32,000 nucleotides of DNA, from assembly GCA_002238765.1 (NCBI GenBank), contig MPMZ01000005.1, positions 1 to 32,000 of the forward strand, read 5' to 3'. Source of the stretch: Nitrospira sp. bin75 (lineage in GTDB: Bacteria; Nitrospirota; Nitrospiria; Nitrospirales; UBA8639). Under the pieces are notes generated by a model that was not told where the DNA came from, searched no databases, and was given only the letters and a program-made list of their open reading frames with translations. The position numbers were made by a program, and so were the translations under genes. Every line of letters begins with the position of its first letter. Positions within the stretch are counted from its first letter, which is position 1. Positions 16,048 through 32,000 of this stretch are shown here, piece after piece.

Positions 16048-18075
16048 ATGGCCGTGACGAAAGAGAGGTTGACGACCACAACGCTCAGTTTGCCCGAAGA
16101 GCTCATCCTGATGCTCCTCAACGAGGAGAACGGGTACTTTCACCAGGTCCCCGGCTGGGATTTGAACTGCGCTGTCGCCGGCGCAGTACTCGCGGAACTC
16201 TCCCTCCTGTCGCGCATCGACACGGACATGAATTCCCTGTTCCTCGTAGATCAGACCGAAACGGGCGACCCCGCCCTGGACCCCATTCTGAAAGAGATTG
16301 CAAGCGAATCGGTTCAACGGAGCACCCAATTCTGGATTGAACGGCTCGCCCCCCGTGCGGAGTCAGTCATTGATTTGACTCTGGATCGCCTGGTCGGCCA
16401 GAAGATCCTGGAATACCACGACGGCGAATTCTGGACGCTGAATCATACCGGCTGGCAGACGGAACTGTACGGCAACTCCCGGGAAAGCACTGCCGGGCAG
16501 TTCATCAAAACGCGGATCGGCAGGGCTATCTTCATGAACGAGATTCCCGATCCCAGAGACATTATCGTGATTTGCCTCGTCAATACGTGCGACGTCTTTC
16601 GCTTCATCTTCCAGCTCGATGAGGAGTCGGAAGAGCGCATCCAACTCATCTGCAAGATGGACGCGATCGGCCGGTCCATCGCCGATGCAGTCGCCCACAA
16701 CCTCGCCGGCCCCCTGCTTCGACATTCGGCCCTGACCAAGAAGATTCCGGCTGTCTCGCTGAGTAAAGTGTTGTTCAATCCACACGTTCGCAAAGTCAAC
16801 ATTCCGGCCCTCTTTGCGGACCTTGCACACGAATATGGACCGGTGTTTGCGATCCGCCTGCCGTTTGCGAAGCCTATGATCTTCCTGGCCGGACCCCGGA
16901 CAAATCGCTGGGCGCATAAGCGCGGGCGCATGTACCTGAGAGCCAAGGACTATCTTGCCGACTTCGAGAAAGTCTACGGCGCGTGCGGCGTCCTACCTTC
17001 CCTAGACGGCGCCGACCATTTCCGGCTTCGCAAGTCCATGTCAACGGCGTATTCCCGTAGAAGAGTTGAATTGCAACTGGACCAACTCTTTCATCTTGCC
17101 AGAACACATATGGCGCATTGGAAGGTTGGAGACTCGTATACCGCGAGGTCCATGTGCCGGCGAATGATCAACGCACAAATCTCGCCGTTCTACGTCAGCG
17201 TGGATTCTCAGGACATCATCGACGACCTGATGACGTACAAGGAACGGGCGCTCAAAACTCACATCTTGAAGAGCCTGCCCAAATTCATGCTGAACACGCC
17301 GGGCATGAAACGCCGGGCAAAAGCCGTGGACACGTTGCTGGAACGGATCCAGAGTGTCCACACGCCCGCCCAGCGCGCCGGTTGCCCGAGAGACCTTGCG
17401 GATGACTGGCTGAGCCTGCACGCGAGCGATCCGCAGTTCATGCCGGAGTCGAACCTGCGTTTCGCTCTCTCTGCAGCGCTGATTGCCAGCGTGTACCTCG
17501 GCGATGCCTTCAGTTTTGCGCTCTACGCCATGGCGTCACAGCCGGAGATCTACGCCAAGATCCGGAGTGAAGCCGATGCCCTGTTCGACAACGGCGATCC
17601 GAACGGCGAGAACTTCAACCCGTCCGCCATTGACGTCACGCACCGCTTCCTCATGGAATGCCTGCGCATGTACCCGATCGTCCCGATGTCTATTCGAACC
17701 GTGATGAACGCGTGCGTGGTCGAGGACTACGAATTGCCGGTCGGGACAAACATCTACATTGCCCAATCGGCCGCGCATTACATGGACGACGTCTTTCCCG
17801 ACCCGTTCACGTTCGATATCGACCGCTATCTTCCTGCGCGCAATGAGCACCTCAGTCCCGGGTACGCCCCGTACGGGCTGGGTACGCACACGTGTCTCGG
17901 CAACCGGCAGATGGACCTGAAATTGGCCGTCAACGTGCTAATGGTCGCGCATTACTTCACGATCGAGGTAGCCCCCGCGAACTACAAGCTCCGGTTCGAT
18001 CCTCTTCCGTCGATGAAACCGAGCAAGAAGCTGAATTTCCTCATCTCCGAGCGGAGGCGCGAGATTAGCGTCTAG
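16048..18075 (+). CDS. fusion protein: N-terminal GOLPH3/GPP34 (Vps74-like) domain and C-terminal cytochrome P450
   Basis: The N-terminal LSLPEELILMLLNEENGYF...LNCAVAGAVLAELSLLSRID is the GPP34-family signature. The C-terminal ~440 aa is a P450 with ExxR (ECLR), PDPFTFDIDRY, and heme loop YGLGTHTCLG (Cys codon 17893-17895). The start is taken at ATG 16048, preceded by GGGAGA (16034-16039); the ORF-track start is 16006. Confidence 0.85.
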   Translation: MAVTKERLTTTTLSLPEELILMLLNEENGYFHQVPGWDLNCAVAGAVLAELSLLSRIDTDMNSLFLVDQTETGDPALDPILKEIASESVQRSTQFWIERLAPRAESVIDLTLDRLVGQKILEYHDGEFWTLNHTGWQTELYGNSRESTAGQFIKTRIGRAIFMNEIPDPRDIIVICLVNTCDVFRFIFQLDEESEERIQLICKMDAIGRSIADAVAHNLAGPLLRHSALTKKIPAVSLSKVLFNPHVRKVNIPALFADLAHEYGPVFAIRLPFAKPMIFLAGPRTNRWAHKRGRMYLRAKDYLADFEKVYGACGVLPSLDGADHFRLRKSMSTAYSRRRVELQLDQLFHLARTHMAHWKVGDSYTARSMCRRMINAQISPFYVSVDSQDIIDDLMTYKERALKTHILKSLPKFMLNTPGMKRRAKAVDTLLERIQSVHTPAQRAGCPRDLADDWLSLHASDPQFMPESNLRFALSAALIASVYLGDAFSFALYAMASQPEIYAKIRSEADALFDNGDPNGENFNPSAIDVTHRFLMECLRMYPIVPMSIRTVMNACVVEDYELPVGTNIYIAQSAAHYMDDVFPDPFTFDIDRYLPARNEHLSPGYAPYGLGTHTCLGNRQMDLKLAVNVLMVAHYFTIEVAPANYKLRFDPLPSMKPSKKLNFLISERRREISV

Positions 18076-18111: not shown

Positions 18112-19146
18112 CTAAAGGGGTTTGCGAGCCAGGAAACAGTACAACGGCGTGAAGATCCCCGACTTGCCACCCGCGACGTAGGCGTCTGCGGTTCGATCCA
18201 GGAGACGGACGACTTCCGCGGAGCCCTTCGGAAAGAGCCGCAGCACCTCGGCCAGCTTCGATCCCGCGATACAACATCTGCGGCCCCATGGAAGCCTGCA
18301 CACGAGGTTACCCAGTGTCCCGTACCGCGTCTCCATGGGTTGATACCAGGGTGTGGACGGCCCCTCCTTGACGTCGCGGTCCTTCCCCTCGATGACCTGA
18401 AATCCCGCCGCTTCGAGCGCACGATTCACTTCCCCGAACGTCGCGATGTCCTTCAGCGCAATGCCACGCATAAGTTCCCGCTTGATGGCCCGGTGCCGGC
18501 TGTCGTTCGGATCGTACTTGTCCGTCAGACACATGTCCTGACCCCAGAACAGGGCTCCGGGTTTCAATACACGGAATATCTCCGCGAACGCGCGTGGCTT
18601 GTCCGGCGCATGGCACGTTGACTCGATGGCATAACCCCGGTCGAACGTCTCGTCTTTGATGGCGCTCATATCCATGAAGCTGCACGTCTCGTAATCGACC
18701 ATGTGGTCGAGCCCCGCCTCGGCGTTCAACCGTTTCGCATTTGCCAACTGGATGTGATTGATGTTGATCCCGACAACCCGGACACCGGCCTCACGGACGA
18801 CCCGGCGCATCGGGCCGCCGATCCCGCAACCGACATCGACCACCGTCATGCCGGGGTGCAACTCCAGCTTGGCGATCATCAACCGCTGGTGCCGGACTTT
18901 GGAATCCCCCAGACTCTCCTGAGGCGTGAGGGGTGCGAAGTGCAGGGATTCGCCCCAACCGTACACCATGAACTCGCTGCAAAGATCATAGTAGTCTTTT
19001 ACCGTTTGGGTGTGGTCGTATCCGTTCACGCCAGCAGCCTCCGGCGTCGCCCGGTCGATCCAGCCGTCGAAGTGCTCCACGCGACGGGTGACGTCCCCCT
19101 CCCGGTACGCTTCCTTGAGCGCGTGCAGAAGTTTGCCTAGTTGCAT
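18112..19146 (-). CDS. sterol C-24 methyltransferase family protein (ERG6/SMT-like), paralog 1
   Basis: 344-aa ORF with SMT region I variant YYDLCSEFMVYGWGESLHFAP, SAM motif VVDVGCGIGGP, IESTCHAPD, and the Sterol_MT_C-type end GGKSGIFTPLYCFLARKP. RBS GGAAGGAG lies before the ATG. Confidence 0.88.
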   Translation of the reverse strand: MQLGKLLHALKEAYREGDVTRRVEHFDGWIDRATPEAAGVNGYDHTQTVKDYYDLCSEFMVYGWGESLHFAPLTPQESLGDSKVRHQRLMIAKLELHPGMTVVDVGCGIGGPMRRVVREAGVRVVGININHIQLANAKRLNAEAGLDHMVDYETCSFMDMSAIKDETFDRGYAIESTCHAPDKPRAFAEIFRVLKPGALFWGQDMCLTDKYDPNDSRHRAIKRELMRGIALKDIATFGEVNRALEAAGFQVIEGKDRDVKEGPSTPWYQPMETRYGTLGNLVCRLPWGRRCCIAGSKLAEVLRLFPKGSAEVVRLLDRTADAYVAGGKSGIFTPLYCFLARKPL

Positions 19147-19238: not shown

Positions 19239-19577
19239 TCATTCCGAACCATCCGGATAGAATTGCCTGCAATACCGTCGATACGCGCCAATTTCCCCGT
19301 CCGAGCGACAGAGTAGCGGGCGGGGCCGATGCTGTTTTCGGCCCCAGATGACGACGTCCTGCAACACGTCCCGGCTCTGAGCCGCCATGATGATTTTGTT
19401 CATGAGCCTGGTGCGCAGGCGTAACGGCAGGAAGCGCATGCCCACGATCGGCCGCTTCGGTCTCAGGATTTGACGCACGTGGCTGACCAGCACCAGTTCG
19501 ACGAGTCTGCCGTCGATGGGCGTAGTCAGCACCCACAAACATGTGAAATCAGTCTCATGTCGTCTCCTCTCTGTCAA
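19239..19577 (-). CDS. possible small hypothetical protein between the regulatory module and SMT paralog 1 (start uncertain: TTG 19577 / TTG 19538 / GTG 19532 / ATG further in)
   Basis: It is the only frame in the 19147-19540 gap with protein-like composition and G/C-rich third positions (..PIDGRLVELVLVSHVRQILRPKRPIVGMRFLPLRLRTRLMNKIIMAAQSRDVLQDVVIW..). No family recognised and no clear RBS. Confidence 0.3.
   Translation of the reverse strand: MTERRRHETDFTCLWVLTTPIDGRLVELVLVSHVRQILRPKRPIVGMRFLPLRLRTRLMNKIIMAAQSRDVLQDVVIWGRKQHRPRPLLCRSDGEIGAYRRYCRQFYPDGSE
19526..19558 (-). other. candidate leader uORF, copy 1 (MRLISHVCGC*)
   Basis: The minus strand reads GAGAGGAGAcgacATG AGA CTG ATT TCA CAT GTT TGT GGG TGC TGA. 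The RBS, the ATG and the first six codons are conserved with the copy at 29284-29346. Confidence 0.3.
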
Positions 19578-20003: not shown

Positions 20004-21035
20004 GTGAACCCTACGCCCGCCAAACAATCCAATTCTCGTTCCCTCGCGGATCTGGCCCCGGATGAAGTCAAATCCACGGTCGATGGATACACCGCGATCT
20101 ACGACGCCGGCCTGGAGAGCAGGAAAGAGCGTTATCAATCGCTCGTCAATCACTACTACGACTTGGTGACCGATTTTTTCGAATTCGGCTGGGGCCAGTC
20201 TTTTCACTTTGCCCCACGGCAACGAGGCGAGAGCTTCAAGGCGTCCCTGCTCAAGCACGAACAATTTCTCGCCGATCGGTTGTCCCTGAAACCGGGAATG
20301 CAGGTACTTGACGTGGGGTGCGGGGTAGGAGGTCCGATGGGTGCTCTGGCCCGCTATTCCGGGGCCAGCTTTGTCGGTATTAACAATAACGCCTACCAGA
20401 TCAAGCGCGCGAAACTGCACACACGGGATGTCGCATCGTTATGCCGCTTCATCTGCGGCGACTACATGCAGATTCCCGAAGGTGACGACCAGTACGATGC
20501 CGCCTTCGCCATCGAGTCAACGGCCCACGCACCGGACAAAACGGCGGCGTTCCGGGAGATCTTCCGCGTCCTGCGTCCGGGGGCCTGTTTCGCAGGCTAC
20601 GAATGGTGTCTCACCGATGAATACGATCCGGAGAACGCGAAGCACCTGAGGATCAAGAACGATATCATGGTGGGGGGTGGGTTACCGGATATCGCCGTCA
20701 CGTCAAAAATCTGCACCGCATTGCGCACGGCCGGATTCGAACTCCTGGAAGCCTGCGACCGCGCCCCCGAATCGGATCCGGAAATGCCCTGGTACCGCGC
20801 CTTGCAGGGTCGAGACCTCAGCATGGGGAGTATTCCGCGTACCCCTGTCGGCCGCGCCTTGACCAATTTGGTGTTACGGGTTGGGGAGAAATTGCGGCTG
20901 GTTCCGGAGGGCGCCCGCGAGGTCAGCACGCTGTTGAATGCAGGGGCGGACGCGCTGGTCGAAGGCGGCAAATCCGGAATTTTTACTCCGATGTTTTTTT
21001 TCCTGGCACGCAAACCCCGTCGCTCGGAAGACTGA
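20004..21035 (+). CDS. sterol C-24 methyltransferase family protein (ERG6/SMT-like), paralog 2
   Basis: 343-aa ORF with canonical SMT region I YYDLVTDFFEFGWGQSFHFAP, SAM motif VLDVGCGVGGP, IESTAHAPD, and C-terminal GGKSGIFTPMFFFLARKP. It uses a GTG start preceded by GGAAGAG. Confidence 0.9.
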   Translation: MNPTPAKQSNSRSLADLAPDEVKSTVDGYTAIYDAGLESRKERYQSLVNHYYDLVTDFFEFGWGQSFHFAPRQRGESFKASLLKHEQFLADRLSLKPGMQVLDVGCGVGGPMGALARYSGASFVGINNNAYQIKRAKLHTRDVASLCRFICGDYMQIPEGDDQYDAAFAIESTAHAPDKTAAFREIFRVLRPGACFAGYEWCLTDEYDPENAKHLRIKNDIMVGGGLPDIAVTSKICTALRTAGFELLEACDRAPESDPEMPWYRALQGRDLSMGSIPRTPVGRALTNLVLRVGEKLRLVPEGAREVSTLLNAGADALVEGGKSGIFTPMFFFLARKPRRSED

Positions 21036-21124: not shown

Positions 21125-24100
21125 TCAAGACAAAGAATAGGTGGGAACCGCTTCAGGCAAGGGCGCCGTCGCGTCGGCAGCAGAGACGGCGGAGGCGGTC
21201 AGTTCCAGCCGGGCCCGACGCCGCTGCTCGTAAAGACCGAGCGCGTGCAGGGGAAAATACTGCCGATACAGGACGTAGTCCAACAGCGCCGTACGGAAAA
21301 AGATCCCGGCCATGTCTTGTTTGGGCCATGTCCCATCCGCTTCCTGGGTGTCGAGCAAAAACCGGGCGCCCCGCGAAATCGCGGTCCAGTTCGAATCCCC
21401 CGCCTCGAGGAGCGCAAGCATGGCCCACGAAGTTTGGATGACCTGACTTTCCTCATGCGCGACGTAGCGGCCGGTCAGGCACCCGCTGTGGTGCTCACCC
21501 CATCCCCCGTCTTCCCGCTGGCGGTCCAGTAACCACCGGCAGGCCAGACGTAGGGCCGGATCACCGGGACGGGCCCCGGCGGCCAGCAGCCCCCTGACCC
21601 CGAAGAAGGTGCCGTAGATGAACTGAACGCCCCAGACGCCGCGCCACGACCCATCGCTGGCCTGGTTCCGGCGAAGCCAGGTGTCAGCCCGTGAGACGGC
21701 GCTCATCATCGCCCCATCCGTGATTTGCGGGAAGTGCTCCTGACAGGCGGCGAGCGCCGCGAGACAAGACGCGGTGCACTCGACGTAGGAATGTTCGGTC
21801 GTCGACTCGCCGAACATCTCGGCCGGATTCAGCCACTCAAGAGGAACCACGGAGCGTTGCGCCTCGTAGCTCCCAAAACCGCCATCGCGGTTCTGACCGC
21901 GCAACATGAACCGAACCGCTTCGTCGAGCATTGTCGTGCTCGTGGCCTCGCAGTCCGCGGCGATAATCCCAAGCACCGCTTCCGCGGTGCAGTCGGTCAC
22001 CGGCCAGCCGTGCCATCCCCCTGGAAAACACCAGCCGCCCTTGGGGTCGCTCCGATAGGCCTCGCGAAATCCTTCGAAGCTGGTACCGATTTGTTCCCGG
22101 CGCAGGAAATCGGCTCCGCGTTGGAGGGCGGTTCGAACCCCGTCGAACTCGGGCACCGTCGCCAGCGCCTGCAGGGCGAATCCGGTATCCCACGAGGAGC
22201 TTCTCGCTCCGGTCACTCGCGCTCCACACTCCTCGTCTTCCCAGATCCAGCCGTCCAGCTTCGCGAACGCCTGCCGGCAGTCTGAATCGTTTGGATCACG
22301 CAGCCATAACGCAAGAATGTTCAGGAAGCCGCTGACCGGAGAGATGCTCGTGTGGCTGGTGGTTTGCAGCTCCCATTTGATGTGCCGAATGATCGATTCC
22401 ATACATCGGGCGCGCAGACGTTTGCCGTGGAACCGCTCGACTACCCGCGCCAACCCATATCCGGCACGGAGCCACACGCTGGGTCGCGCGTACAGGTCGG
22501 CGCTTCGCAAGCGATTGCGGCCCGCGGAAAAATTCACGTTGGCAAACCCCTGGGGGAACAACTCCTCTCGTAACGACGCGATCGTGGGCGTGACGGGTGC
22601 TTGAAACCGATGCGGGTAAATCGCCGCCATCGCCATATAGATGAGCCGGGTATGGCAGTACCAATTCGAGGGGTGTAACACGATCCAGCGCGGCAAGATC
22701 CACAACTCCGGGAGAATGGCGTTGACCCCGCGCCAGTCGTAGAGATGGAGAAGCGCCAGCCAGAACTTCCCCCAACTCGGGATATTGAGAACCCCTTCTG
22801 CTTGCATGAATCGACGGGCCGGCTCGATTAACGGATCATCCCGTTCGATACCGAGTAATCTCGCCGCGACGTACACCAGGGTGGTGACAAACAGGTTGGG
22901 TGGTGAGTGCTCGTGTAAACCCCATACGCCTTCCCGGAGACGGGTCCGTTCGAAGGAGCGTAGCACACGCCGGCACCGGCCGGGATCGAGCGGCCGCTCC
23001 ATCATGTGGAGCAATAACACATATTGCGCGGTCAGCATGGGACACCACACCATCTCACCCTCCCAAGCGCCATCCTCACCCTGGAGACGTAACAGACGCG
23101 CGCACGCGCTCTTCAAGGCCGGTTCGGCATAGGGTGACGCAACTTCCCTCGGGCGGATGGACTGGGGGTTACTCACGCTCGACGGCATGGAGACCAATAG
23201 CGCACGAGCCAAGGTGTCCCGAATTCGCTCGTCTTGTGCTCCGCCCTCGCCTCTCGCCTTGCGCAGATGTATGACGCCACGCAGGAGCCACTGGAGACGA
23301 ACGGCGAGCGCCTGAACGACGTCGCAGGCCCTCCGCCAAGCGAACTGGTCGCAGGATCGCGGAATCGCCCCGGCAACCGCCCGAAACACCATCGCGCAAC
23401 CCGCGAAACTCATATGGGATACCGATATGTCTTCACAGGCGAGCAAACGCATGGTCTCGTTGCGGAACGCGGAACTTGCCCGCCAACGCCGGTAGATCGC
23501 GTGTCTGACTGCCACCACCTCGGCCCGGTGATCGGCAAAGGTCTCATAGAGCTCCATGGCAAGGAGCTCGGGAGTGTGGGTCGCTTGGAAACGCTTTGTG
23601 GTGAAGTCGTGAAAGTCCTTGCCTTCGGCCAGCGTCAGCGCATCGCCGAAACCCAGGGGCATTCCCACCGCCGTCAGGGGATGGTAGTGCCCGGCCGCAT
23701 CGCCGATCAGCACTCGATGGGGGCTCCCGTACGTGACGCGCGGACTCAGTTCATTGGCCGCGGCCTGGAATTGCCCCGCCCGTAGCGCTTCGATAAACGC
23801 AGGCCTGAGTGTTTCCGGCAACACACCGGCATACGCGTCCGACAGAAAGCCAATCCGGTCCCAGGGTGTCCAGCCGTCCGATGGGACATCGACGATGACC
23901 CGGACGCAATGATCTCCCAAACGGTACATGAGAATTGGACCCGGTCCACCACACAACACGTGCCCATAACCCTCCAGCGGTAAACGCACCCCTCTCAATG
24001 TGACCCCCACCATCCGCGAGCAGGTCTTCGGTTTGATCGATAAGCCCAAGGATCGACGCACGATTGAGGCCCGGCCGTCGGCGCCGACAATCCGCGCGGC

Positions 24101-24550
24101 GGATAGGGATTTCTCTGTACCGTTGCAGGAAAACGTGACGCGCGCGTCTTCCACTGAACGGACCCACGCGTGGGGAATAAAGTCGACACCCGGTTCGCTC
24201 TCGATCGCTTCACGCAGATTCGAGACGATCGCCGCATGCTCGCACGCCAAACCGTGAAGTCCCTCCGGATAAGGGAGCACGATCGGCTCCGAGCCGTCTT
24301 CCGGGAACACGACAAATCCCTTACCGGTGGTGCTGAGGGGCTGCGTATCGAGCCTGATGCCGAAATCGCGTAACATCCGCACGGCAAGCGGATGCAGCCA
24401 TTCGCCCGCCATTCGTTTGGAAGCATTGGGATTGGCTTCGAGCAGAGCCACCCTGGCGCCGTTCCGCGCGTGAGCGAGCGCGCACAAGCTGCCTGCCGGA
24501 CCCGCGCCGACGATGGCAACGTCGTAGCGCCGAACAGTGGCGTCACTCAT
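21125..24550 (-). CDS. single-ORF fusion of squalene monooxygenase (epoxidase, N-terminal ~470 aa) and oxidosqualene cyclase (C-terminal ~650 aa)
   Basis: N-terminal YDVAIVGAGPAGS (FAD) and GDAAGHYHPLTAVGMPLGFGDA (squalene-epoxidase motif). The C-terminal part has QW-type repeats (GEDGAWEGE, RDGGFG, SDGSWRG, EDGGWGEH, ADGTWP) and the epoxide-protonating VTDCTAE motif (21980-22015). No in-frame stop lies between the domains. I place the start at ATG 24548-24550, which overlaps the cyp51 stop as ATGA; the ORF-track start 24787 adds 79 non-homologous residues. Confidence 0.88.
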   Translation of the reverse strand: MSDATVRRYDVAIVGAGPAGSLCALAHARNGARVALLEANPNASKRMAGEWLHPLAVRMLRDFGIRLDTQPLSTTGKGFVVFPEDGSEPIVLPYPEGLHGLACEHAAIVSNLREAIESEPGVDFIPHAWVRSVEDARVTFSCNGTEKSLSAARIVGADGRASIVRRSLGLSIKPKTCSRMVGVTLRGVRLPLEGYGHVLCGGPGPILMYRLGDHCVRVIVDVPSDGWTPWDRIGFLSDAYAGVLPETLRPAFIEALRAGQFQAAANELSPRVTYGSPHRVLIGDAAGHYHPLTAVGMPLGFGDALTLAEGKDFHDFTTKRFQATHTPELLAMELYETFADHRAEVVAVRHAIYRRWRASSAFRNETMRLLACEDISVSHMSFAGCAMVFRAVAGAIPRSCDQFAWRRACDVVQALAVRLQWLLRGVIHLRKARGEGGAQDERIRDTLARALLVSMPSSVSNPQSIRPREVASPYAEPALKSACARLLRLQGEDGAWEGEMVWCPMLTAQYVLLLHMMERPLDPGRCRRVLRSFERTRLREGVWGLHEHSPPNLFVTTLVYVAARLLGIERDDPLIEPARRFMQAEGVLNIPSWGKFWLALLHLYDWRGVNAILPELWILPRWIVLHPSNWYCHTRLIYMAMAAIYPHRFQAPVTPTIASLREELFPQGFANVNFSAGRNRLRSADLYARPSVWLRAGYGLARVVERFHGKRLRARCMESIIRHIKWELQTTSHTSISPVSGFLNILALWLRDPNDSDCRQAFAKLDGWIWEDEECGARVTGARSSSWDTGFALQALATVPEFDGVRTALQRGADFLRREQIGTSFEGFREAYRSDPKGGWCFPGGWHGWPVTDCTAEAVLGIIAADCEATSTTMLDEAVRFMLRGQNRDGGFGSYEAQRSVVPLEWLNPAEMFGESTTEHSYVECTASCLAALAACQEHFPQITDGAMMSAVSRADTWLRRNQASDGSWRGVWGVQFIYGTFFGVRGLLAAGARPGDPALRLACRWLLDRQREDGGWGEHHSGCLTGRYVAHEESQVIQTSWAMLALLEAGDSNWTAISRGARFLLDTQEADGTWPKQDMAGIFFRTALLDYVLYRQYFPLHALGLYEQRRRARLELTASAVSAADATAPLPEAVPTYSLS

Positions 24551-25956
24551 TGGACAATGCTCGCTTGCGAGCGGCGGCGATAGCGGACCCGGCACGGTGC
24601 CTTGGGACCCGTCACCCAACTCCCGTAATTCGGGGCGGGAAACGCCGTGTCGAGATGAAAATCGAAGCGATCGAGCAGCACGGTCCAGATCGCTTTCAGT
24701 TGCAGGTAAGCAAAAAGTTTCCCCATACACACGTGTTTGCCGCCGCCGAAACCGATCAGGGCGTACTGATGTTGCTTGTCCTCGCAAGCGGGAGGGTCAA
24801 AACGCTCCGGAGAGAACCGTTCCGGGTCGGCAAACACGTGGGGCAGCCGGTGAGAGACTGCAGGGGACACCATGGCCAGGGTGCCGGCAGGCACGAGATG
24901 GTCTCCGTAACGCACGGGTTTCAGCACCTTGCGGATCAGCATGATCAACGGCGGGTGCATCCGCTCACACTCACGGACGGCGTGTTCCAGCGCCACTTGT
25001 CGTTTGAGACTAGCAAGGGTCATGGCTCCTTCCTCACGGTAAACGTCTTGCATCTCGTCTCTGACCCGCGCCAGGTATGATGGTGCCCTCACGAGTTCCA
25101 GACCGGTCCAGGTTGCGAGCACCGCGCTGGTGTGTTGGCCCGCGAACAAGACCGTCAGCAAGATCCCAGAAATTTCGTCGTCGCTCAAAGCACGGCCATC
25201 CTTGTACCGGGCGTGCATGAGTGCCTGCATGAAATCATCGGGACAGGCCCCGGAAAACCGGCGTTCCGCCATGATCCGGCTAAAGAGTTCGACCACGTTT
25301 CGCCGGGCCCGGTCGCGGCTTCGATGCGCCGCGGTCGGAAGTCTGGGGAGAAAAAATCCCAAGGTGTTGATGCCTTTTTGCAGATCGTGATACGCCTCGG
25401 CAAAACCCGAGTCCACCTGATCCCGGACTTCCTGTCCAATGAGGCAACGACTGGCGATCTTGACGGTGAGTTCGTTCAACGCGACCGGCAGATCGGCTTC
25501 ACCCTCCTCGCCGAGGGCGTCGGCGAACCAGCTCGTCTCCTCGAACATGATGCGCGCAAACCTGCTCATCGCGGCCTCGCGGAGCGCCGGAAACAAGAAT
25601 CCCAGTTGCTCGTCCATGAGTTCGGGGGGGGCATCGTACGCCACGCCGCGTCCGAAGATGGGTACCGTGAATTGATAGACGGCTTTGGCGTTCAGTTGAT
25701 CCTCGGGCGCCCTGAAGTAAACTTCGTGGGCTTCGGGTCCGGTGAAGAGAACAAACTCTCGGGGACCGAGCCGGAACCGGAAGAGATCGCCCTGCTCGCG
25801 CCAGCCGCGGCTCAACATCGAGACCGGATCCTTGAGAAAATCCGGCAGATGACCGATCAACGGCCATCCACCCCCAAGCTCGGGAACGGCTTTTGCGACG
25901 CGCGGCGAGAACTGCGCCGAACGCAGGGTTGCCACACTGTGAGACCGATCTTCCAC
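24547..25956 (-). CDS. cyp51: sterol 14-alpha-demethylase, cytochrome P450 family 51
   Basis: CYP51 signatures: B'-helix YQFTVPIFGRGVAYDAP, I-helix LFAGQHTSAV, and heme loop FGGGKHVCMG. The preferred start is GTG 25954-25956, with GGAGAG 8 nt upstream overlapping the preceding gene's TGA. The alternative ATG at 26022 would overlap the upstream gene by 55 nt. Confidence 0.9.
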   Translation of the reverse strand: MEDRSHSVATLRSAQFSPRVAKAVPELGGGWPLIGHLPDFLKDPVSMLSRGWREQGDLFRFRLGPREFVLFTGPEAHEVYFRAPEDQLNAKAVYQFTVPIFGRGVAYDAPPELMDEQLGFLFPALREAAMSRFARIMFEETSWFADALGEEGEADLPVALNELTVKIASRCLIGQEVRDQVDSGFAEAYHDLQKGINTLGFFLPRLPTAAHRSRDRARRNVVELFSRIMAERRFSGACPDDFMQALMHARYKDGRALSDDEISGILLTVLFAGQHTSAVLATWTGLELVRAPSYLARVRDEMQDVYREEGAMTLASLKRQVALEHAVRECERMHPPLIMLIRKVLKPVRYGDHLVPAGTLAMVSPAVSHRLPHVFADPERFSPERFDPPACEDKQHQYALIGFGGGKHVCMGKLFAYLQLKAIWTVLLDRFDFHLDTAFPAPNYGSWVTGPKAPCRVRYRRRSQASIVQ

Positions 25957-25967
25957 CCCTGCTCTCC

Positions 25968-27062
25968 TCAATAGACAAACGGCAGCATCGAAAAGCGCAC
26001 TCGCTGCGTGTAGCGTTCCCACAATTCGCCATACTTGGCTCGGCAGCGGTGCTCATCACGTCTCGAGCGATGCCACAACAAACCCGCCAGCCACACGGGT
26101 AACAGGTAGGGTACCCAGGATGCGAATCCGGTGGTCAGGGTGAACGCGAGGTAGATGCAGATTTCACCGGTATAGTTGAGATGCCGTCCAATGCCCCAAA
26201 AGCCGGAGACCAGCAGGCGCCCGTCCATGGACCGGGCGGGTTGTCCCCAAATCATGATGTCGGGGTCACGCTTGAAGCGGTGCTTTTGCTGGTTGGCGCC
26301 GCGGAAGACCCAGAAGCCGAACAACAGGACGATCGCAGCCGCGGCAATGGGAGACAGCGGTGCCGATGCGTGGATCAGCCACCAGCCGGGGAGGCAGTAG
26401 AAAAACGGCACCAGCACGTAGTCTCCCCAAATCAACATCCATCCGAAGCGCTCACTGACGATGTCCCAAGTGTGGATCATGCCGTATTCGAACTGGAAGT
26501 AATTGAGCACGTACAGGAAGGTGAAGATCTGATAGAGCGCCATGGCCAAGGTCAGCCCGCCGTAGGTTTCGTACTGCGCGACGGCAAACGAGGCGTTGAG
26601 CAGCGCCAGGCCGATGAGGGAAGGGCGGTAACTGAAAAGCTTCAAATCCACCCCGAACCAGGTGGGATTGAGTTCCACGCCAAAGAAGAAACCTTTCCAC
26701 GGTCCCGGTGGTGCATCCCCCAACTCGGCTCTTCGCCAATACAGCCAGCCGGACAAGGCGAATGCGAATACGTTGGTCACCACGAACAACGCGGCGAAGT
26801 GGGTATGCAGCACGGAAAGAGAAAACCACCCGAAGACCTCGGCGAGACAGGCCACGATCACGGTCATCAGGAACAAGGCAAGGCCGTTGAGCTTGTAGGT
26901 GTGCGTTTTTCCGCCGATCTCCGGCCCCGTCACCCGCCGTCCGGACAGGAACGCCGAACCCAGAAACAACACGCCGACAAACACCGACACCATGACCGTC
27001 GCATCGAGCACCGTGCCGGCCGACAGCGTGGACAACGGGAAGTGCAGCTCAGACGCCGGCAT
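25968..27062 (-). CDS. ERG4/ERG24-family sterol reductase (most likely C-14 reductase; C-24(28) or C-7 reductase not excluded)
   Basis: 364-aa polytopic membrane ORF with family motifs GANQQKHRFK, GFWGIGRHLNYTGE and HRSRRDEHRCRAKYGELWERY. It lies immediately upstream of cyp51. Confidence 0.85.
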   Translation of the reverse strand: MPASELHFPLSTLSAGTVLDATVMVSVFVGVLFLGSAFLSGRRVTGPEIGGKTHTYKLNGLALFLMTVIVACLAEVFGWFSLSVLHTHFAALFVVTNVFAFALSGWLYWRRAELGDAPPGPWKGFFFGVELNPTWFGVDLKLFSYRPSLIGLALLNASFAVAQYETYGGLTLAMALYQIFTFLYVLNYFQFEYGMIHTWDIVSERFGWMLIWGDYVLVPFFYCLPGWWLIHASAPLSPIAAAAIVLLFGFWVFRGANQQKHRFKRDPDIMIWGQPARSMDGRLLVSGFWGIGRHLNYTGEICIYLAFTLTTGFASWVPYLLPVWLAGLLWHRSRRDEHRCRAKYGELWERYTQRVRFSMLPFVY

Positions 27063-28176
27063 CGCCGTTCTCCGTCCCCCGCACCATGTACTCCCGCCAC
27101 TTGCGCACGGTCACGTTTTGAAAAGCCCGCACCGCCGGATTGTACTCGATGGGGGGAGCGTCCCAATGTTGCTCGTAACCCTGCTGCTCCGCTTCGACCG
27201 CAACGCCGTCCTGGGCGAGTAAAGGGCCGATGAGTACACGGTTCGAGATCTTCAACACCGCGGTCATGGCGAAACGGGGAATACGAACAGGCAGCAAGGG
27301 CACCTTCAGCGACTTGAAGTAAAACAGGAAAAACGCCCGGGTAGTACGCTCATCGATCGGCAGGACGAAAAGCCAGTGTTTGATCGCGTCATCGGTGTTC
27401 GACCACTGGTAGGGGTATTGATAGCACAGTTCCATATGAGTGGTATCGAGCCGGTGGTGATCGACAAACAGTCCGGAGATGCGCCCGCGCCCGACCCGCG
27501 TATCGTAGGCCACGTGCACGTCGTCGCCGACGGTCTCGCAACGGGTGAGAGTGGCGTCTTCTTCGAAGGGACGGTATTGACGGTGCAGGTGGGCGTGGGT
27601 GAAGTCGCTCACGTTATCGATCACCATCGAGTGGTGGGCCGACCAGGTGAAAACCAGCGGCTCGCAGGCCCACCGCTCGGGTCCCTCGAGTTCCGGGATG
27701 TCCGGGATCCGGCGCAACTCCGCCCGCTCCGGTTCCCCGGGGAACAACCAGACCAGACCGTATCGGACCTTCACGGGATAGGTTCTGAGCGGGAGCTTCG
27801 GGAGACCCCGTCCGGAGAGGTCGTGGGGGATCGCGACACAGCGTCCGTTTCCATCATACTGCCAGCCATGGTAGGCGCACACGAGCCGGCAGCCTTGCAC
27901 CTCGCCCAGGGAGAGTTTGAGCTGGCGATGCGCACAGCGATTCTCGATAGCGTGAAACGAGCCGTCCTTTCCCCGGAACAGCGCAATGGAACGTTTCCAG
28001 AAAATGACCTCGACCACCGTCCCCGGTTTGACGCGGTGCACTTCCTCAACCGCGTACCAATAATCCGGGTCCATCCCCGCGGCACGGGCTTGCTGGCGCA
28101 AGCTGCCGGCTTCCTCGAAGCCGGGTGGCGCACCCGGCGCCGGAATCACGTTGAGCCTTCTTTTCGCGTTATCCAT
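27049..28176 (-). CDS. sdmA: Rieske [2Fe-2S] non-heme-iron oxygenase, SdmA-like (bacterial sterol C-4 methyl oxidase candidate)
   Basis: Rieske motif CAHRQLKLS..(x)..CAYHGW and a mononuclear-iron region DNVSDFTHAHLH. It is paired with an SDR gene as in the Methylococcus capsulatus sdmAB arrangement. The symbol is assigned by context and family, not by a search. Confidence 0.7.
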   Translation of the reverse strand: MDNAKRRLNVIPAPGAPPGFEEAGSLRQQARAAGMDPDYWYAVEEVHRVKPGTVVEVIFWKRSIALFRGKDGSFHAIENRCAHRQLKLSLGEVQGCRLVCAYHGWQYDGNGRCVAIPHDLSGRGLPKLPLRTYPVKVRYGLVWLFPGEPERAELRRIPDIPELEGPERWACEPLVFTWSAHHSMVIDNVSDFTHAHLHRQYRPFEEDATLTRCETVGDDVHVAYDTRVGRGRISGLFVDHHRLDTTHMELCYQYPYQWSNTDDAIKHWLFVLPIDERTTRAFFLFYFKSLKVPLLPVRIPRFAMTAVLKISNRVLIGPLLAQDGVAVEAEQQGYEQHWDAPPIEYNPAVRAFQNVTVRKWREYMVRGTENGDAGV

Positions 28177-29287
28177 AGGCCTGGCTCGGAGAAAAATTGT
28201 CCACGGGTGCCGCGGCGGTCACGCACGGACGTTTCGCGAGCGGATTCGTGATCGCGTTGCGATGGTAGTGAAAGGCGTAAGCCTCACGAACCGCAGCACG
28301 GATACTGGTTGGCTGATAGCCGAGTTCCCGTTTCGCTTTGCTAGTGTCGGCGTGACGGCGCTTTCGTAACAGGCGGATGGCGCCGGGGGTGAACCGCTGG
28401 GGAAAGCTCGGGTGAAACCGGCTCAGATAAAAGCTCGCCACTTCCGAAAAGCCGAGCATCAGGCGGGTCGGAATCCGCCGGCACGGTCGCGGGAGTCCCG
28501 AGACTTCCTCGAACAGATCCAAGATCTCGGAGATGGTTTTGTACTCGCTGCTGAAGATGTACTTTTCGCCCGATCGTCCTTTGTGCATACACAACAGGTG
28601 TCCTTCGACAATGTCCCTCGCCGCGACAAACTCGAACCCCCCGTCGACGTAGGCGCGGATCTTGCGGTTGGTGTAGTCGCACAAGGTCCGTCCCAATCGC
28701 GAGGGGAAAAAATCACCGCCCCCGATCACCGCACAACACGTGGCGACCACGACGTCCTGTCCCTTCGCCGCGGCCTTCCAGCACTCGTGCTCGACGAGCG
28801 CTTTGCTGCGCTCGTAGGGCATCGTGCGCTCCATGGGATAGAACTGCATCGTCTCGTCGCTGGGAGAGGACGGATTATCCAGATCGTACCCGACCGCACT
28901 GAAAGAGCCCGTCACCACCACCCGGCCGGCCCCCGCCTCCCGCGCAGCCTGCAGCACGTGGCGGGTACCGAGCACGTTGCACTCGAACACTTCCCGCCGA
29001 TGGGCGCGGTTGCCTTCGATGGTCGAGACCTTGGCCGCGACGTGATAGACGCCTTGACAGCCTTCGAGCGCGCGCCTGGTGGCATTCAAGTCTCGAATGT
29101 CACCGAACGAGCGTTCAACATCAAGGCCTTCCAACGCCTCGTTGTTGTCCTCGTGTCTCAGCAACACCCGGACCCGGACGCCATCGTCGAGCAGCCGGCG
29201 CACAAGATTGGCGCCCACGTGCCCGGCCGATCCGGTAACGAAAACAGGCGGCGGAGAACCGGCGAATGCGCCCGATCCTGAGGTCAT
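28169..29287 (-). CDS. sdmB: NAD(P)-dependent SDR (3-beta-HSD / epimerase family), SdmB-like (C-4 decarboxylase/ketoreductase candidate)
   Basis: Rossmann VFVTGSAGHVGANLVRRLL and catalytic YERSK (YxxxK). It overlaps the sdmA-like start by 8 nt and is the first gene of the five-gene unit. RBS GGAAGGA lies before the ATG. Confidence 0.7.
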   Translation of the reverse strand: MTSGSGAFAGSPPPVFVTGSAGHVGANLVRRLLDDGVRVRVLLRHEDNNEALEGLDVERSFGDIRDLNATRRALEGCQGVYHVAAKVSTIEGNRAHRREVFECNVLGTRHVLQAAREAGAGRVVVTGSFSAVGYDLDNPSSPSDETMQFYPMERTMPYERSKALVEHECWKAAAKGQDVVVATCCAVIGGGDFFPSRLGRTLCDYTNRKIRAYVDGGFEFVAARDIVEGHLLCMHKGRSGEKYIFSSEYKTISEILDLFEEVSGLPRPCRRIPTRLMLGFSEVASFYLSRFHPSFPQRFTPGAIRLLRKRRHADTSKAKRELGYQPTSIRAAVREAYAFHYHRNAITNPLAKRPCVTAAAPVDNFSPSQAYG

Positions 29288-29692: not shown

Positions 29693-29842
29693 GCGCCCTC
29701 AGGCTTCCTGCTGCGGCACCCTGAGTGTCCGCGCCCTCCCCTACGGAAGCCACATGGCGATGATCGAAATGCACCCCCAGCACACAACCGCCAAGGGAAC
29801 CAGCCGGGTCGCCGCGGCTGCACGCCGCCGGACAGCGAAGGC

Positions 29843-32000
29843 ATGAGCTCCGCCACTCTGGACCGCTACACCGCGTTCATGTTGCGCCGCCGATGGCTGG
29901 TCCTCGCGTCGGCCGTGGCAGTCATGCTGGCTCTGACGGCCGGCGTCCAATTCATCAACATCTCCAACGACTGGCGTGACATGTTGGACGAGGACAATCC
30001 TCAACTCGTGGCATTCGACGCCTTGGAGGATACCTACACGGCCACCAATGCGGCGCTGGTCGCGGTCGCGCCCAAGGGCGGGTCGGTCTTCACCCGCGAG
30101 GCGCTCGGCGCCGTCGAGGAGTTGACCGAGGCCGCGTGGCGCGTGCCCTCGTCCACCCGGGTCGACTCCTTGACCAACTATAGCCACACCGAGTCGGTCG
30201 AGGACGATTTGAACGTCGAACGGCTCGTGGACGACGCGGGATCGCTGAGCGATGACGACCTCGCGCGGATCAAGGAAATTGCGTTAAACGAGCCCAGTGT
30301 CGCGGGCCGTCTCGTTTCCCACGACGGGCGCGTTGCCGGACTGGTCATCAGTTTCACCTTGCCCGAGCATTCGGACGCCGCGGAGATCCGGATTCTCAAC
30401 TATGTCCGCGGCCTCCTGGAAGAGGCCAGGGCGGCGCATCCGGACATCGCCTATCACGTCACCGGCAATGTCTTCGTGAACCGAGTCCTGACGAAGGCGG
30501 CCCAGGACGATATGGGAATTCTCGCGCCCGTCGCGTTCCTCGTCATCGTGTCCGTCGCCGCCATTCTGCTGCGCTCCCTGTTCGGCACGCTGTCCCTCGT
30601 CGCGGTGCTCCTTTTCGTCGTCGGCTCGACCATGGGCGTCATCGGCTGGACCGGTTTGGTGCTCAACGCCGCCAACTCCGGCGTTCCCCTCATCATCATG
30701 ACGCTCGCCATCGCGCACTCGGTCCACGTCGTCGAGAAGATCGTGTCCGGCATGAGCCGGGGTCTGGATAGGGACACGGCGGTCGTCGAATCGTTGCGCG
30801 ACAATGCCTGGCCGGTCTTCCTGACGACGGCCACGACGATGATCGGGTTCCTCAGCATGAACGCCTCGGACTCTCCGCCCTTCCGGGTCCTCGGTAATCT
30901 TGTGGCGTTCGGGATGTTCTGCGCCTACGTGTATTCCATGACGCTTCTTCCGGCGCTGCTGTTGGTCCTGCCGTTGCGCGCGAGTCCCGTACGCGCCGGG
31001 CGTTCCAATTTCTTCGATCGCCTCGGCGCCTTCGTCGTCGCGCGCCGCGGGCTCCTGCTCTGGTCCATGGCCGCCGTCGCGATTACCCTGATAGCCGGCG
31101 TGCCCCGCGTCGAGCTGACGGACAACTGGACGACGCATTTGGATGAACGTTACGAGTTTCGGCGCGATACGGACTTCGTCATCGAGAACCTGTCCGGCGT
31201 AGAGACGCTGGAGTACAGCCTGAGAGCCGGACGCGAAGGCGGCATCACCGATCCCGGCTATCTGCGCAAGGCCGACGCTTTGGCCGAATGGTACCGGGCC
31301 CAGCCGGAAGTGGCTCACGTCCGGGCGTTTTCAGACATCATGAAGCGCCTCAACAAGAACATGCACGGCGACGACCAGGCCTTTTACCGGCTGCCCGAAA
31401 ACCCCGAGCTTGCCGCGCAGTACCTGCTGCTCTACGAACTTTCGGTTCCCTTCGGCATGGACCTCAACAACCGAATGGACATCGGCAAAACCTCGACGCG
31501 GATGACCGTCACGCTCCACAGACTGAAGTCCGAGGAGATGCGTGAGCTCGAAGTGCGCGGGCAGGAGTGGCTCCGCGCCAACGCGCCCGACCTCGCGTCC
31601 GAGGCATCGGGGTACAGCCTCATCTTCGCCCATCTGGCCATACGGAACACCATGAGCATGTTGTGGGGCACGATCACGGGTATGGTCCTCATTTCGCTGC
31701 TCCTGATCGCGATTTTCAGAAGCGTACGCCTCGGCCTCATCAGCCTCGTGCCCAACCTCATCCCCTCGTTTATGGCTTTCGGCGTTTGGGGCTATCTGTA
31801 CAGCGAGGTGGGGCCCGCCGGCTCGCTCGTGACCGCGATCGCCTTCGGCACCGTCGTCGATGACACGATTCACCTCATGAGCAAGTATCTGAAGGCGCGT
31901 CGCGAAGGACTTTCCGCGTCCGAGGCGGTATGCTACGCTTTTCGTTCGGTCGGTCAGGCGTTGTTCACCACAACCATGATGCTGGTGCTGGGCTTCCTGG
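29843..32000 (+). CDS. RND-superfamily MMPL/HpnN-type transporter (BstA-like sterol transporter candidate), C-terminus beyond window
   Basis: Own translation from ATG 29843 gives MSSATLDRYTAFMLRRRWLVLASAVAVMLALTAG..., then a periplasmic loop, a TM bundle (..LIIMTLAIAHSVHVV.., ..TTATTMIGFLSMN..), a second loop, and a second bundle with FGTVVDDTIHLMSKY. The frame is open to 32000. It is absent from the ORF track because it is open-ended. Confidence 0.85.
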   Translation, partial: MSSATLDRYTAFMLRRRWLVLASAVAVMLALTAGVQFINISNDWRDMLDEDNPQLVAFDALEDTYTATNAALVAVAPKGGSVFTREALGAVEELTEAAWRVPSSTRVDSLTNYSHTESVEDDLNVERLVDDAGSLSDDDLARIKEIALNEPSVAGRLVSHDGRVAGLVISFTLPEHSDAAEIRILNYVRGLLEEARAAHPDIAYHVTGNVFVNRVLTKAAQDDMGILAPVAFLVIVSVAAILLRSLFGTLSLVAVLLFVVGSTMGVIGWTGLVLNAANSGVPLIIMTLAIAHSVHVVEKIVSGMSRGLDRDTAVVESLRDNAWPVFLTTATTMIGFLSMNASDSPPFRVLGNLVAFGMFCAYVYSMTLLPALLLVLPLRASPVRAGRSNFFDRLGAFVVARRGLLLWSMAAVAITLIAGVPRVELTDNWTTHLDERYEFRRDTDFVIENLSGVETLEYSLRAGREGGITDPGYLRKADALAEWYRAQPEVAHVRAFSDIMKRLNKNMHGDDQAFYRLPENPELAAQYLLLYELSVPFGMDLNNRMDIGKTSTRMTVTLHRLKSEEMRELEVRGQEWLRANAPDLASEASGYSLIFAHLAIRNTMSMLWGTITGMVLISLLLIAIFRSVRLGLISLVPNLIPSFMAFGVWGYLYSEVGPAGSLVTAIAFGTVVDDTIHLMSKYLKARREGLSASEAVCYAFRSVGQALFTTTMMLVLGFL

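Follow-up and report, generated by a model that had tools for sequence, protein, structure and literature searches.

A GPP34-cytochrome P450 fusion of sponge-symbiont bacteria recurs with sterol methyltransferases and steroid-type oxygenases: a candidate sterol-tailoring enzyme

Introduction

The stretch analyzed here (the window) comprises the first 32,000 nucleotides of contig MPMZ01000005.1 from Nitrospira sp. bin75 (GCA_002238765.1). At 16048 to 18075 on its + strand, next to a set of sterol biosynthesis genes, it carries a gene whose product joins an N-terminal GPP34 domain, related to eukaryotic GOLPH3 and Vps74, to a cytochrome P450. What would a GOLPH3-like domain do in front of a P450, and on which substrate would such an enzyme act?

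The protein is a member of a known family. Ferreira et al. (2025; Microbiome 13:4, PMC11706023) distinguished GPP34_S, the domain alone, from the long form GPP34_L, in which 656 of 663 proteins combine GPP34 with a cytochrome P450. The family was found in 604/780 symbiont genomes (sponge, coral) and in 0/85 free-living ones. GPP34_L occurred only in sponge-symbiont genomes of many phyla, its hosts being metagenome-assembled genomes (MAGs) of Nitrospirota, Latescibacterota, Gemmatimonadota, Chloroflexota, Proteobacteria, Actinobacteriota and others; Nitrospirota had the long form only, in 85.7% of symbiont genomes (PMC11706023). The architecture, the symbiont restriction and the locus itself are already published, and the window protein matches the definition of GPP34_L, with both domains in one polypeptide and a sponge-symbiont gene order. 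An earlier reading of the window, made from the sequence alone (the sequence-only reading), had taken the architecture as not known to be characterized, which is true of its biochemistry, but the architecture had been catalogued as GPP34_L.

Most lineages of high-microbial-abundance sponge symbionts are reported to carry the GPP34-P450 family, and the sole published idea on its function, disfavoured by the sequence as detailed below, is that of a secreted effector that binds host phosphatidylinositol 4-phosphate (PI4P) and blocks phagosome maturation (PMC11706023). The words "sterol" and "methyltransferase" are absent from that paper, and no other paper linking GPP34 to sponge symbionts or to sterols was found in the literature searched. 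On balance, the analysis presented here points to an intracellular P450 that probably tailors sterols or steroids, in which GPP34 would stand in for a membrane anchor or a substrate-delivery device, and which would travel on a horizontally mobile cassette with a sterol methyltransferase (SMT), a KshA-type Rieske oxygenase, a flavin adenine dinucleotide (FAD) enzyme and an RND transporter.

Results

The fusion gene is intact and encodes a complete P450

The gene and the parts of its product are located as follows (window positions, strand, feature, basis).

16048..18075, +: GPP34-P450 fusion gene (675 aa; GPP34_L family); stop-free open reading frame (ORF), both Pfam domains, homologs
16090..16695, +: GPP34 (GOLPH3/Vps74-like) domain, aa 15-216; Pfam E=4e-27, 3kn1 profile E=8e-13
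16696..16752, +: inter-domain linker, aa ~217-235; AlphaFold2 (AF2) confidence profile, low predicted local distance difference test score (pLDDT) at 222-227
16753..18072, +: complete cytochrome P450 domain, aa ~236-675; Foldseek, phmmer
17446..17535, +: I-helix, aa 467-496, in which S481-V-Y483-L-G485-D486 (nt 17488-17505) replaces AGxDT; alignments, AF2 helix
17656..17667, +: ExxR motif E537-C-L-R540; invariant in alignments
17872..17901, +: heme loop Y609-GLGTHTC616LG618 with thiolate ligand Cys616; G610, H614 and C616 invariant

We confirmed that the fusion of GPP34 and P450 is real and intact. The ORF runs in a single + strand frame from 16006 (GTG) or 16048 (ATG) to 18075 with 0 internal stops. 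The ATG at 16048, with the Shine-Dalgarno sequence GGGAGA 9 nt upstream, gives a protein of 675 aa, which is the length of >200 full-length homologs. Two independent assemblies (ENA ERZ27241796 and JGI 3300027327) encode the identical protein with the same neighbours, and the fusion is therefore no assembly or frameshift artefact and hides no inter-domain stop. A frameshift between the domains, or the stop that the sequence-only reading had named as a refuting finding, was thus ruled out by the continuous ORF, the identity of the two assemblies and the equal length of the homologs. A one-off fusion was likewise ruled out, since the initial search gave 2199 matches and an exhaustive representative search gave 373 representatives with E<1e-30. 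A scan for promoters and terminators around the gene returned matches at chance level.

Both proposed domain assignments were borne out. The N-terminus matched Pfam GPP34 (PF05719) with 95.9 bits (cut-off 29.1; E=4e-27) over profile positions 1-199 of 201, and a profile built from 17 diverse N-terminal domains matched human GOLPH3 (3kn1) over the whole domain at E=8e-13 and Vps74 at E=9e-11. Pfam p450 (PF00067) aligned only with the C-terminal half of its profile (aa 423-660, 118 bits, E=5e-34). However, the AF2 model of the whole fusion (pLDDT 85.7, predicted template modelling score 0.78) superposed in Foldseek on entire P450 structures, over ~450-470 columns with template modelling scores of 0.78-0.83 (Methylococcus capsulatus CYP51, 6mcw, 0.83; CYP184A1, 0.83; CYP120A1, 0.81-0.83; BM3, ~0.78), so that the P450 is complete even though Pfam covers its C-terminal half. 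In agreement, phmmer matched the fusion P450 to CYP51 at E=5e-17.

Together with the full fold, we observed the cysteine ligand loop (FxxGxxxCxG), the ExxR motif and the PERF-type arginine of P450s. The short motifs picked out earlier, ECLR, FDIDRY and YGLGTHTCLG, correspond to E537-R540, to the segment F-D-I-D-R593-Y holding the PERF-type R593, and to the Cys616 loop. Since Cys616, ExxR and R593 are invariant throughout the family alignments, the protein is predicted to bind heme. GPP34 was the sole extra domain, as neither an Fe-S, a flavin nor a redox-partner domain was found with Pfam and NCBIfam; the NCBIfam scan gave weak P450 matches far below threshold and no functional assignment. A transmembrane anchor, whose absence had been anticipated, was not detected in the AF2 model and the hydrophobicity windows, and neither was a signal peptide, the two most hydrophobic 19-residue windows being the GPP34 core helix and the I-helix.

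A cassette of sterol methyltransferase, oxygenase and transporter genes recurs beside the fusion

Gene neighbourhoods were analyzed in the best 80 loci (67-87% identity) of 189 relatives in species-representative genomes. The window genes were searched against these loci by tblastn, all locus ORFs were clustered and annotated, and a neighbourhood was defined as within 10 kb of the fusion. The following partners recurred.

44/80 loci: SMT (SMT1-type), 67-89% identical, mostly directly adjacent to the fusion
44/80 loci: 362-aa Rieske + KshA_C oxygenase
35/80 loci: 825-aa MMPL/HAE3 RND transporter with a sterol-sensing domain (SSD)
33/80 loci: AcrB-type RND pump with HlyD adaptor and outer-membrane factor
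27/80 loci: 462-aa FAD amine-oxidase-type oxidoreductase (PF01593)

At least one partner was present in 77/80 loci, and the SMT or the KshA-type Rieske in 62/80, so the linkage to sterol genes that had been suggested from the window held across lineages. The nearest solved structures of the cassette Rieske are KshA steroid 9alpha-hydroxylases (E=5e-23). The rarer neighbour families in the 80 loci were lineage-specific housekeeping genes.

The linkage also held in reverse, starting from the SMT. Among 75 SMT1-type loci from sponge metagenomes, 51 of them >=8 kb, a close fusion was found in 18/51 and a fusion at 42-50% identity in about 8 more, while OSC (oxidosqualene cyclase), CYP51 and SdmAB genes were found within 10 kb in 0 of the 51. 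The most compact cassette belongs to a member of 63% identity, in which SMT, FAD oxidase, Rieske and fusion lie on one strand, next to AcrB with its adaptor and flanked by transposases. Conserved linkage was thus observed in the 80 loci, in the reverse search and in other subfamilies (see below).

By contrast, the full sterol pathway, with squalene epoxidase (SE) and OSC, CYP51, ERG24 and SdmA/B, adjoined the fusion only in 7 Nitrospirales loci and 1 Thermodesulfobacteriota locus; tblastn over the 80 loci found neither OSC nor CYP51 within 10 kb of the fusion in the other phyla. The placement of the gene at the edge of a sterol locus, as proposed from the window, therefore describes the Nitrospirales and one Thermodesulfobacteriota locus, whereas elsewhere the fusion sits in the SMT/Rieske/FAD/RND cassette without these two genes. 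Likewise, of the co-occurrence with OSC and SMT genes that had been suggested for checking, the SMT part was found (44/80) and the OSC part was limited to Nitrospirales and that one other locus.

The type of transporter followed the cell envelope. MMPL/SSD was present in 28/29 Chloroflexota and 3/3 Actinomycetota loci, and AcrB in 16/16 Latescibacterota and 11/11 Gemmatimonadota loci. A one-component MMPL/SSD transporter in the former is thus matched by a tripartite system of AcrB, HlyD and OEP in the latter, the fusion being ~70-80% identical in both settings.

A 395-aa MpaB/Lcp-type oxygenase (PF09995, family c10) was observed near the fusion in 7 loci, e.g., L038, L061, L062 and L078; the identified loci belong to Gemmatimonadota, Gammaproteobacteria and one unclassified MAG. 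This could be one more oxygenase of the cassette.

The I-helix lacks the acid-alcohol pair and carries an invariant tyrosine

As the sequence-only reading had noticed, the I-helix does not contain the canonical acid-alcohol pair of the pattern (A/G)Gx(D/E)T. It reads A480-S-V-Y-L-G-D486 at this place, with one residue deleted relative to distant paralogs, whose helix has AG(I/L)(D/E)T(A/S). The segment ALIASVYLGDAFSFALYAM, on which that observation was based, is present at aa 477-495, but its position is nt 17476-17532 and not 17469-17531 as first given.

The variant is shared by relatives. In the close clade (122 proteins), S481, Y483, G485 and D486 are invariant; in the clade of 40-55% identity (91 proteins), Y483 and G485 are, which makes Tyr483 invariant in 213 proteins of two subfamilies. 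By contrast, most members below 40% identity keep a canonical AG(I/L)(D/E/H)T. Such a strictly conserved S-x-Y-L-G-D helix suggests a non-canonical chemistry, e.g., side-chain desaturation rather than ordinary hydroxylation. Each of the activities named in the sequence-only reading, side-chain desaturation, hydroxylation or a further demethylation, is nevertheless a guess.

In CYP nomenclature, members of the same family share above about 40% identity. The fusion P450 is 19% identical to M. capsulatus CYP51 and 23% (BLASTP) to the CYP51-like protein encoded in the window, and a duplication of the latter was ruled out on this value. Since the locus has its own CYP51 (ERG11) homolog, the fusion is not the 14-demethylase.

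The PI4P pocket of GOLPH3 is not conserved

In GOLPH3, the PtdIns4P pocket is formed by W81, R90, R171 and R174, and double-alanine mutants abolish binding (Wood et al., 2009; PMC2806290). We observed that these residues align with V34, A44, E105 and I108 in the window protein, so that all four are replaced and the conserved pocket of PI4P effectors is missing. In 122 close homologs the same positions hold V (100%), V/A/I, E/D and I/V, none of them basic, and R90 and R171 are kept in no subfamily. Docking onto PI4P in the manner of GOLPH3, which the comparison with the eukaryotic protein had brought up, is therefore unlikely. A membrane or lipid could plausibly be docked through another surface of the domain.

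The family spans many phyla

A first homolog search returned >120 clusters at 75-88% identity, all of ~675 aa and each with both domains, and the 373 representatives mentioned above included dozens of full-length fusions at 24-57% identity. A profile search added subfamilies at ~34%, 43-50% and 63% identity. The closest named homolog came from Nitrospira sp. SB0662_bin_26. Among the 80 loci, at least nine phylum-level MAG labels were represented, including Nitrospirales, Latescibacterota, Binatia, Thermodesulfobacteriota, Gemmatimonadota, Chloroflexota/Dehalococcoidia/SAR202, Rhodothermaceae, Gammaproteobacteria and Acidimicrobiia, and many isolate names (SB066x_bin, APA_bin, RHO_bin) are those of known sponge MAG sets.

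The fusion is as similar between phyla (medians 0.70-0.75, maxima 0.79-0.96 per listed phylum pair) as within them (medians 0.71-0.76). The nearest relative belongs to another phylum for 14/69 fusion sequences, and the GC content of the gene stays at 0.57-0.61 whatever that of its flanks (0.57-0.66). Taken together, these sequence comparisons make horizontal spread of the fusion gene the most economical explanation.

Three pairs of fusions are 90-96% identical under different phylum labels, namely L038/L065 (Gemmatimonadota/Gammaproteobacteria), L005/L009 (Latescibacterota/Rhodothermaceae) and L011/L012 (Binatia/Thermodesulfobacteriota). Very recent transfer could account for each pair, as could inconsistent taxonomy labels or contamination during the binning of short contigs.

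Distant subfamilies have other steroid-related neighbours

The 46% subfamily was accompanied by a KshA-type Rieske, an RND adaptor, IspH, two squalene/phytoene-synthase (SQS_PSY) genes, MMPL and AcrB; the 49% subfamily by an epimerase, a DUF1295 (steroid-reductase-like) gene and a KshA-type Rieske; and in the 42% subfamily the KshA-type Rieske lay directly upstream of the fusion.

The neighbours of the ~34% fusions, which have a canonical I-helix, were different. We observed two sulfotransferases and an APS kinase next to L162, a sulfotransferase and a GT1 glycosyltransferase next to L163, an acyltransferase and a GT1 glycosyltransferase next to L084 and L166, and a 3beta-HSD, a steroid 5alpha-reductase (PF02544) and an ecdysteroid-kinase-like (EcKL) gene next to L165. 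Such neighbourhoods hint at a steroid chemistry of sponge symbionts that involves sulfation or glycosylation. In the contexts sampled, the two types of I-helix keep different company. Tyr-type fusions sit with SMT, Rieske and FAD genes, suggesting C-C bond or desaturation chemistry, while canonical-type fusions sit with conjugating enzymes, suggesting hydroxylation followed by sulfation, glycosylation or acylation.

Transposase or TnpB genes often lie near the canonical I-helix fusions.

The Nitrospirales window combines the cassette with a sterol pathway

The sterol-related genes of the window are as follows.

18112..19146, -: SMT1-type sterol methyltransferase, cassette partner, gene 9 ("2 of 2") of Brown et al.; Pfam Sterol_MT_C + methyltransferase
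19239..19577, -: 112-aa KshA_C fragment, remnant of the cassette Rieske oxygenase; PF19298 in two assemblies
20004..21035, +: SMT2-type sterol methyltransferase, gene 11 ("1 of 2") of Brown et al.; Pfam, mapping
21125..24787, -: single ORF with squalene epoxidase (aa 88-451) and oxidosqualene cyclase (aa 559-1187); Pfam
24547..26022, -: CYP51-like P450, candidate 14-demethylase of the locus; Pfam, BLASTP, ERG11 homolog in the Brown et al. supplement
25968..27062, -: ERG4/ERG24-family sterol reductase; Pfam E=3e-70
27049..28176, -: SdmA-like Rieske C-4 demethylation oxygenase; Pfam Rieske + VanA_C, sdmA homolog at 47% identity (Brown et al. supplement)
28169..29287, -: SdmB-like NAD-dependent dehydrogenase (3beta-HSD family); Pfam, Brown et al. 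supplement
29840..32000, +: MMPL/HAE3 RND transporter with a sterol-sensing-type domain, running past the window end; Pfam MMPL E=7e-33, Patched/SSD

The order SMT, small gene, SMT, ERG1+ERG7, ERG11, ERG24, sdmA, sdmB is exactly that of scaffold JGIcombinedJ30088_10000835, which Brown et al. (2023; PMC10070321) studied from the metagenome of the sponge Aplysina aerophoba. Gene 11 of this scaffold makes 24-isopropyl sterols in vitro (PMC10070321). By position, the fusion would be gene 8 of that scaffold; the text of the paper mentions neither P450 nor cytochrome, and hence not the fusion gene (PMC10070321).

Every element of the cassette is present in the window, the Rieske only as the 112-aa fragment between the two SMT genes. 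As this fragment aligns with the C-terminal end of the cassette Rieske (family c2, 362 aa), it is read from sequence as a decayed copy of that gene. The SE-OSC ORF of ~1220 aa is kept in 6 Nitrospirales loci, and ERG1 and ERG7 match one and the same gene in the supplement of Brown et al.; it appears to encode a genuine fusion enzyme. Its first 240 nt overlap the CYP51-like gene, and for this reason its true start probably lies further downstream. The transporter matched TIGR00921 at E=3e-45 and showed an HpnN-like match. An ORF of 344 aa at 30284-31318 (-), considered as a further cassette gene, was rejected as the antisense shadow of the + strand MMPL gene; its product is rich in R, D, G and H and has no homologs.

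To the left of the fusion, a contiguous block of reverse tricarboxylic acid cycle genes occupies 4179-14371 (-), with genes for succinyl-CoA synthetase, a fumarate-reductase-like flavoprotein with its Fe-S subunit, aconitase and ATP-citrate lyase (ACL) alpha and beta. Across Nitrospirales MAGs, identity is 94-98% for the ACL genes, which assigns the window to a Nitrospirales symbiont, and only 71-87% for the fusion in the same loci, indicating that the fusion either evolved much faster or was exchanged. Between ACL and the fusion lies the gene of a 443-aa PilX N-terminal (pilin-like) protein (14533-15864, -), whose position is kept in Nitrospirales loci at 71-84% identity. Further left, window positions 2000-4000 form a low-GC stretch (0.45-0.48 vs ~0.58 elsewhere) that may be an inserted island and that contains a gene with a NERD nuclease-related domain (2306-3373, -).

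Discussion

A proposed membrane-docked P450 acting on sterols

How, then, might the fusion work? As we see it, the protein would be an intracellular heme-thiolate P450 acting on a sterol or steroid. Its GPP34 domain, an accessory module and not a redox partner, would most likely hold the P450 at the cytoplasmic face of the membrane, or alternatively hand a membrane-embedded sterol to it, and would do so through a surface other than the PI4P pocket. It may thereby do the job of the N-terminal transmembrane helix of eukaryotic sterol P450s. An intracellular accessory role fits the rare GPP34-Rieske and GPP34-ABC-ATPase fusions and the P450 genes that often lie beside free GPP34 genes (PMC11706023). 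The gene would travel on a mobile cassette of GPP34-P450, SMT1, KshA-type Rieske, FAD amine-oxidase-type oxidoreductase and RND transporter, which in Nitrospirales adjoins a complete de novo sterol pathway. As most other phyla have no OSC or CYP51 nearby, the enzyme may act there on host sterol that the transporter moves. The I-helix variant would perhaps serve a side-chain desaturation that supplies or consumes SMT substrates.

Several points count against this proposal. The support for a sterol role comes from gene neighbourhood only, and at 15-21% identity to the nearest solved P450s no substrate can be inferred by homology. The fusion and SMT1 genes of the window converge, which precludes their co-transcription. 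Ferredoxin and reductase genes were not among the recurrent neighbours of the fusion in the 80 loci, which bears on its electron supply. Some of the MAG labels behind the cross-phylum spread may be binning errors, as in very similar cross-phylum pairs on short contigs, and the contrast between Tyr-type and canonical neighbourhoods was drawn from ~5 sampled loci per distant subfamily.

Taken further and jointly, the observations could be read as a mobile sterol-remodelling cassette, with which unrelated sponge symbionts, most of them lacking a cyclase, import host sterol, rebuild its side chain and insert the product into their membrane or export it. We regard this extension as unlikely, although worth stating for what would follow from it. 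Desaturation or oxidation by the P450, Rieske or FAD enzyme and alkylation by the SMT could give sterols of the 24-isopropyl or 26-methyl types, and bacteria would become a widespread potential source of "sponge" sterane biomarkers. The restriction of the family to symbionts would be explained by a lipid that aids tolerance or mimicry, without a PI4P effector. GPP34 would be a new membrane or sterol-delivery module of P450s, and the Tyr-type I-helix a new catalytic variant.

Alternative explanations

The cassette might instead serve the catabolism or detoxification of host sterol, with a CYP125/CYP142-like P450, a KshA-type opening of ring B and uptake through the RND transporter, the sterol being used as carbon source or neutralized. 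The commonest direct neighbour of the fusion is, however, an SMT, a biosynthetic tailoring enzyme, and in Nitrospirales the gene adjoins a de novo biosynthetic pathway. The FAD enzyme of the cassette belongs to the amine-oxidase family (PF01593) and not to the KstD family, and beta-oxidation, Hsa-type ring-cleavage and KstD genes did not recur in the 80 loci. Even if the closeness of the cassette Rieske to KshA, the lack of an OSC near the cassette in most host genomes and the transporter as a cassette member (MMPL 35/80, AcrB 33/80) would suit a catabolic role, we consider it improbable.

Only slightly less can be said for a non-sterol hydrophobic substrate, such as a hopanoid, a carotenoid or retinoid, a fatty acid or a sponge metabolite or xenobiotic, with sterol genes nearby merely through shared lipid handling. 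In structure, the P450 has among its neighbours CYP120A1 (retinoic acid), CYP184A1 and BM3 (fatty acids). The transporters are similar to HpnN, a hopanoid transporter, as well, the SQS_PSY genes of one context might supply hopanoid or carotenoid synthesis, and the SMT-like proteins of the window also match the CMAS (lipid cyclopropane synthase) profile. Against this, the neighbouring methyltransferases carry Sterol_MT_C and their paralog in the locus is experimentally a sterol C-24 methyltransferase; other recurrent neighbours have steroid-family domains (KshA_C, sterol-sensing, Steroid_dh, 3Beta_HSD, DUF1295), and squalene-hopene cyclase and carotenoid genes were not recurrent. A substrate of this kind is therefore quite improbable.

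The secreted eukaryote-like effector of Ferreira et al. (2025), binding PI4P on the sponge phagosome and blocking its maturation with the P450 as an auxiliary, is very improbable in our opinion. All four residues of the PI4P pocket are replaced, non-basic in the 122 close homologs, with R90 and R171 gone in every subfamily, and the protein has no signal peptide. GPP34 is joined here to a complete heme P450 whose thiolate loop is intact, and elsewhere to other cytoplasmic enzymes. What is conserved around the gene are enzymes that modify lipids and RND transporters of lipids, and not protein secretion systems. What speaks for the effector is that the domain is a true GOLPH3 homolog and that the family is reported from sponge and coral symbionts only (604/780 vs 0/85 free-living), in line with the sample names of our 80 loci, which are sponge or coral MAG sets.

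Two further roles, taken together, are just as improbable. GPP34 might be a protein-protein adaptor that tethers the P450 to the SMT or the transporter, in the way that Vps74 holds the tails of glycosyltransferases. Eukaryotic GOLPH3/Vps74 does attach to cytosolic tails of membrane enzymes (PMC2806290), and GPP34 is fused to or lies beside several enzyme types. However, the fusion stays ~70-80% identical whether its transporter is MMPL or AcrB, two unrelated architectures, and this speaks against a dedicated interface with the transporter. Alternatively, the P450 might be a non-catalytic heme sensor, as the missing acid-Thr pair for normal O2 activation might suggest, but all heme-binding and structural P450 motifs are strictly conserved, as in a working enzyme.

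Significance

In the literature searched, a cassette linking the family to SMTs, steroid-type oxygenases and envelope-matched RND transporters appears to be unreported, as do the absence of the PI4P pocket and the division into Tyr-type and canonical subfamilies with different neighbourhoods. Should the sterol-tailoring proposal prove true, a symbiosis-specific family would gain a concrete biochemical role, and the alkylation and modification of sterol side chains by bacteria would be far wider than the few OSC-containing clusters suggest. This would bear on the long-debated reliability of 24-isopropylcholestane and 26-methyl steranes as animal biomarkers. P450s would also gain a new class, marked by an N-terminal lipid or membrane module without redox function and by an invariant tyrosine that takes the place of the acid-Thr pair in the I-helix.

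Comparison with known systems

The closest comparison is GPP34_L as published, with the same architecture (PF05719 + PF00067) and the same sponge-symbiont hosts. To this description our analysis adds the missing PI4P pocket, the SMT/Rieske/FAD/RND cassette and the split between Tyr-type and canonical I-helices. With GOLPH3 (3kn1) and Vps74 (2zih), the fusion shares whole-length homology of its N-terminal domain, a helical core and a beta-hairpin, predicted at aa 121-131 from the AF2 secondary structure. It differs from them in that their pocket is intact and they have an N-terminal extension, whereas the domain of the fusion is joined to an enzyme, in bacteria that have no Golgi.

On the transport and oxygenase side, the cassette transporter (MMPL/HAE3 + SSD) and Rieske (KshA_C) belong to the families of BstA/HpnN and KshA. 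They score far under the equivalog cut-offs and are thus relatives and not orthologs, and no link between these families and a GPP34-P450 was found described in the literature searched.

Among P450s, CYP51 (M. capsulatus 6mcw and 7jj1; the CYP51-like protein of the window) is the closest solved structure by sequence and fold; it belongs to a sterol pathway, and its I-helix is unusual too. However, identity is only 19-23%, the I-helix motif is another one and the N-terminal half of the P450 has no detectable sequence similarity. P450 BM3 and the CYP51-ferredoxin of M. capsulatus are likewise bacterial P450s fused to an accessory domain, which in their case is a C-terminal redox partner and here an N-terminal GOLPH3-like domain without cofactor. 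The fused flavodoxin, FAD reductase or ferredoxin of a self-sufficient P450 is thus absent, so that the fusion must obtain electrons from another source, unless it can do without them.

By its proposed role, and not by close sequence, the fusion would most resemble the CYP710/ERG5 C22-desaturases, as a side-chain P450 that acts after the SMT and has a membrane-engaging element at its N-terminus, a transmembrane helix in the desaturases and a globular domain here. The CYP710/ERG5 desaturases may also lack the I-helix threonine. As an analogy only, the sterol C22-desaturase of tomato depends on an N-terminal membrane helix to be active in vivo (PMC7972189).

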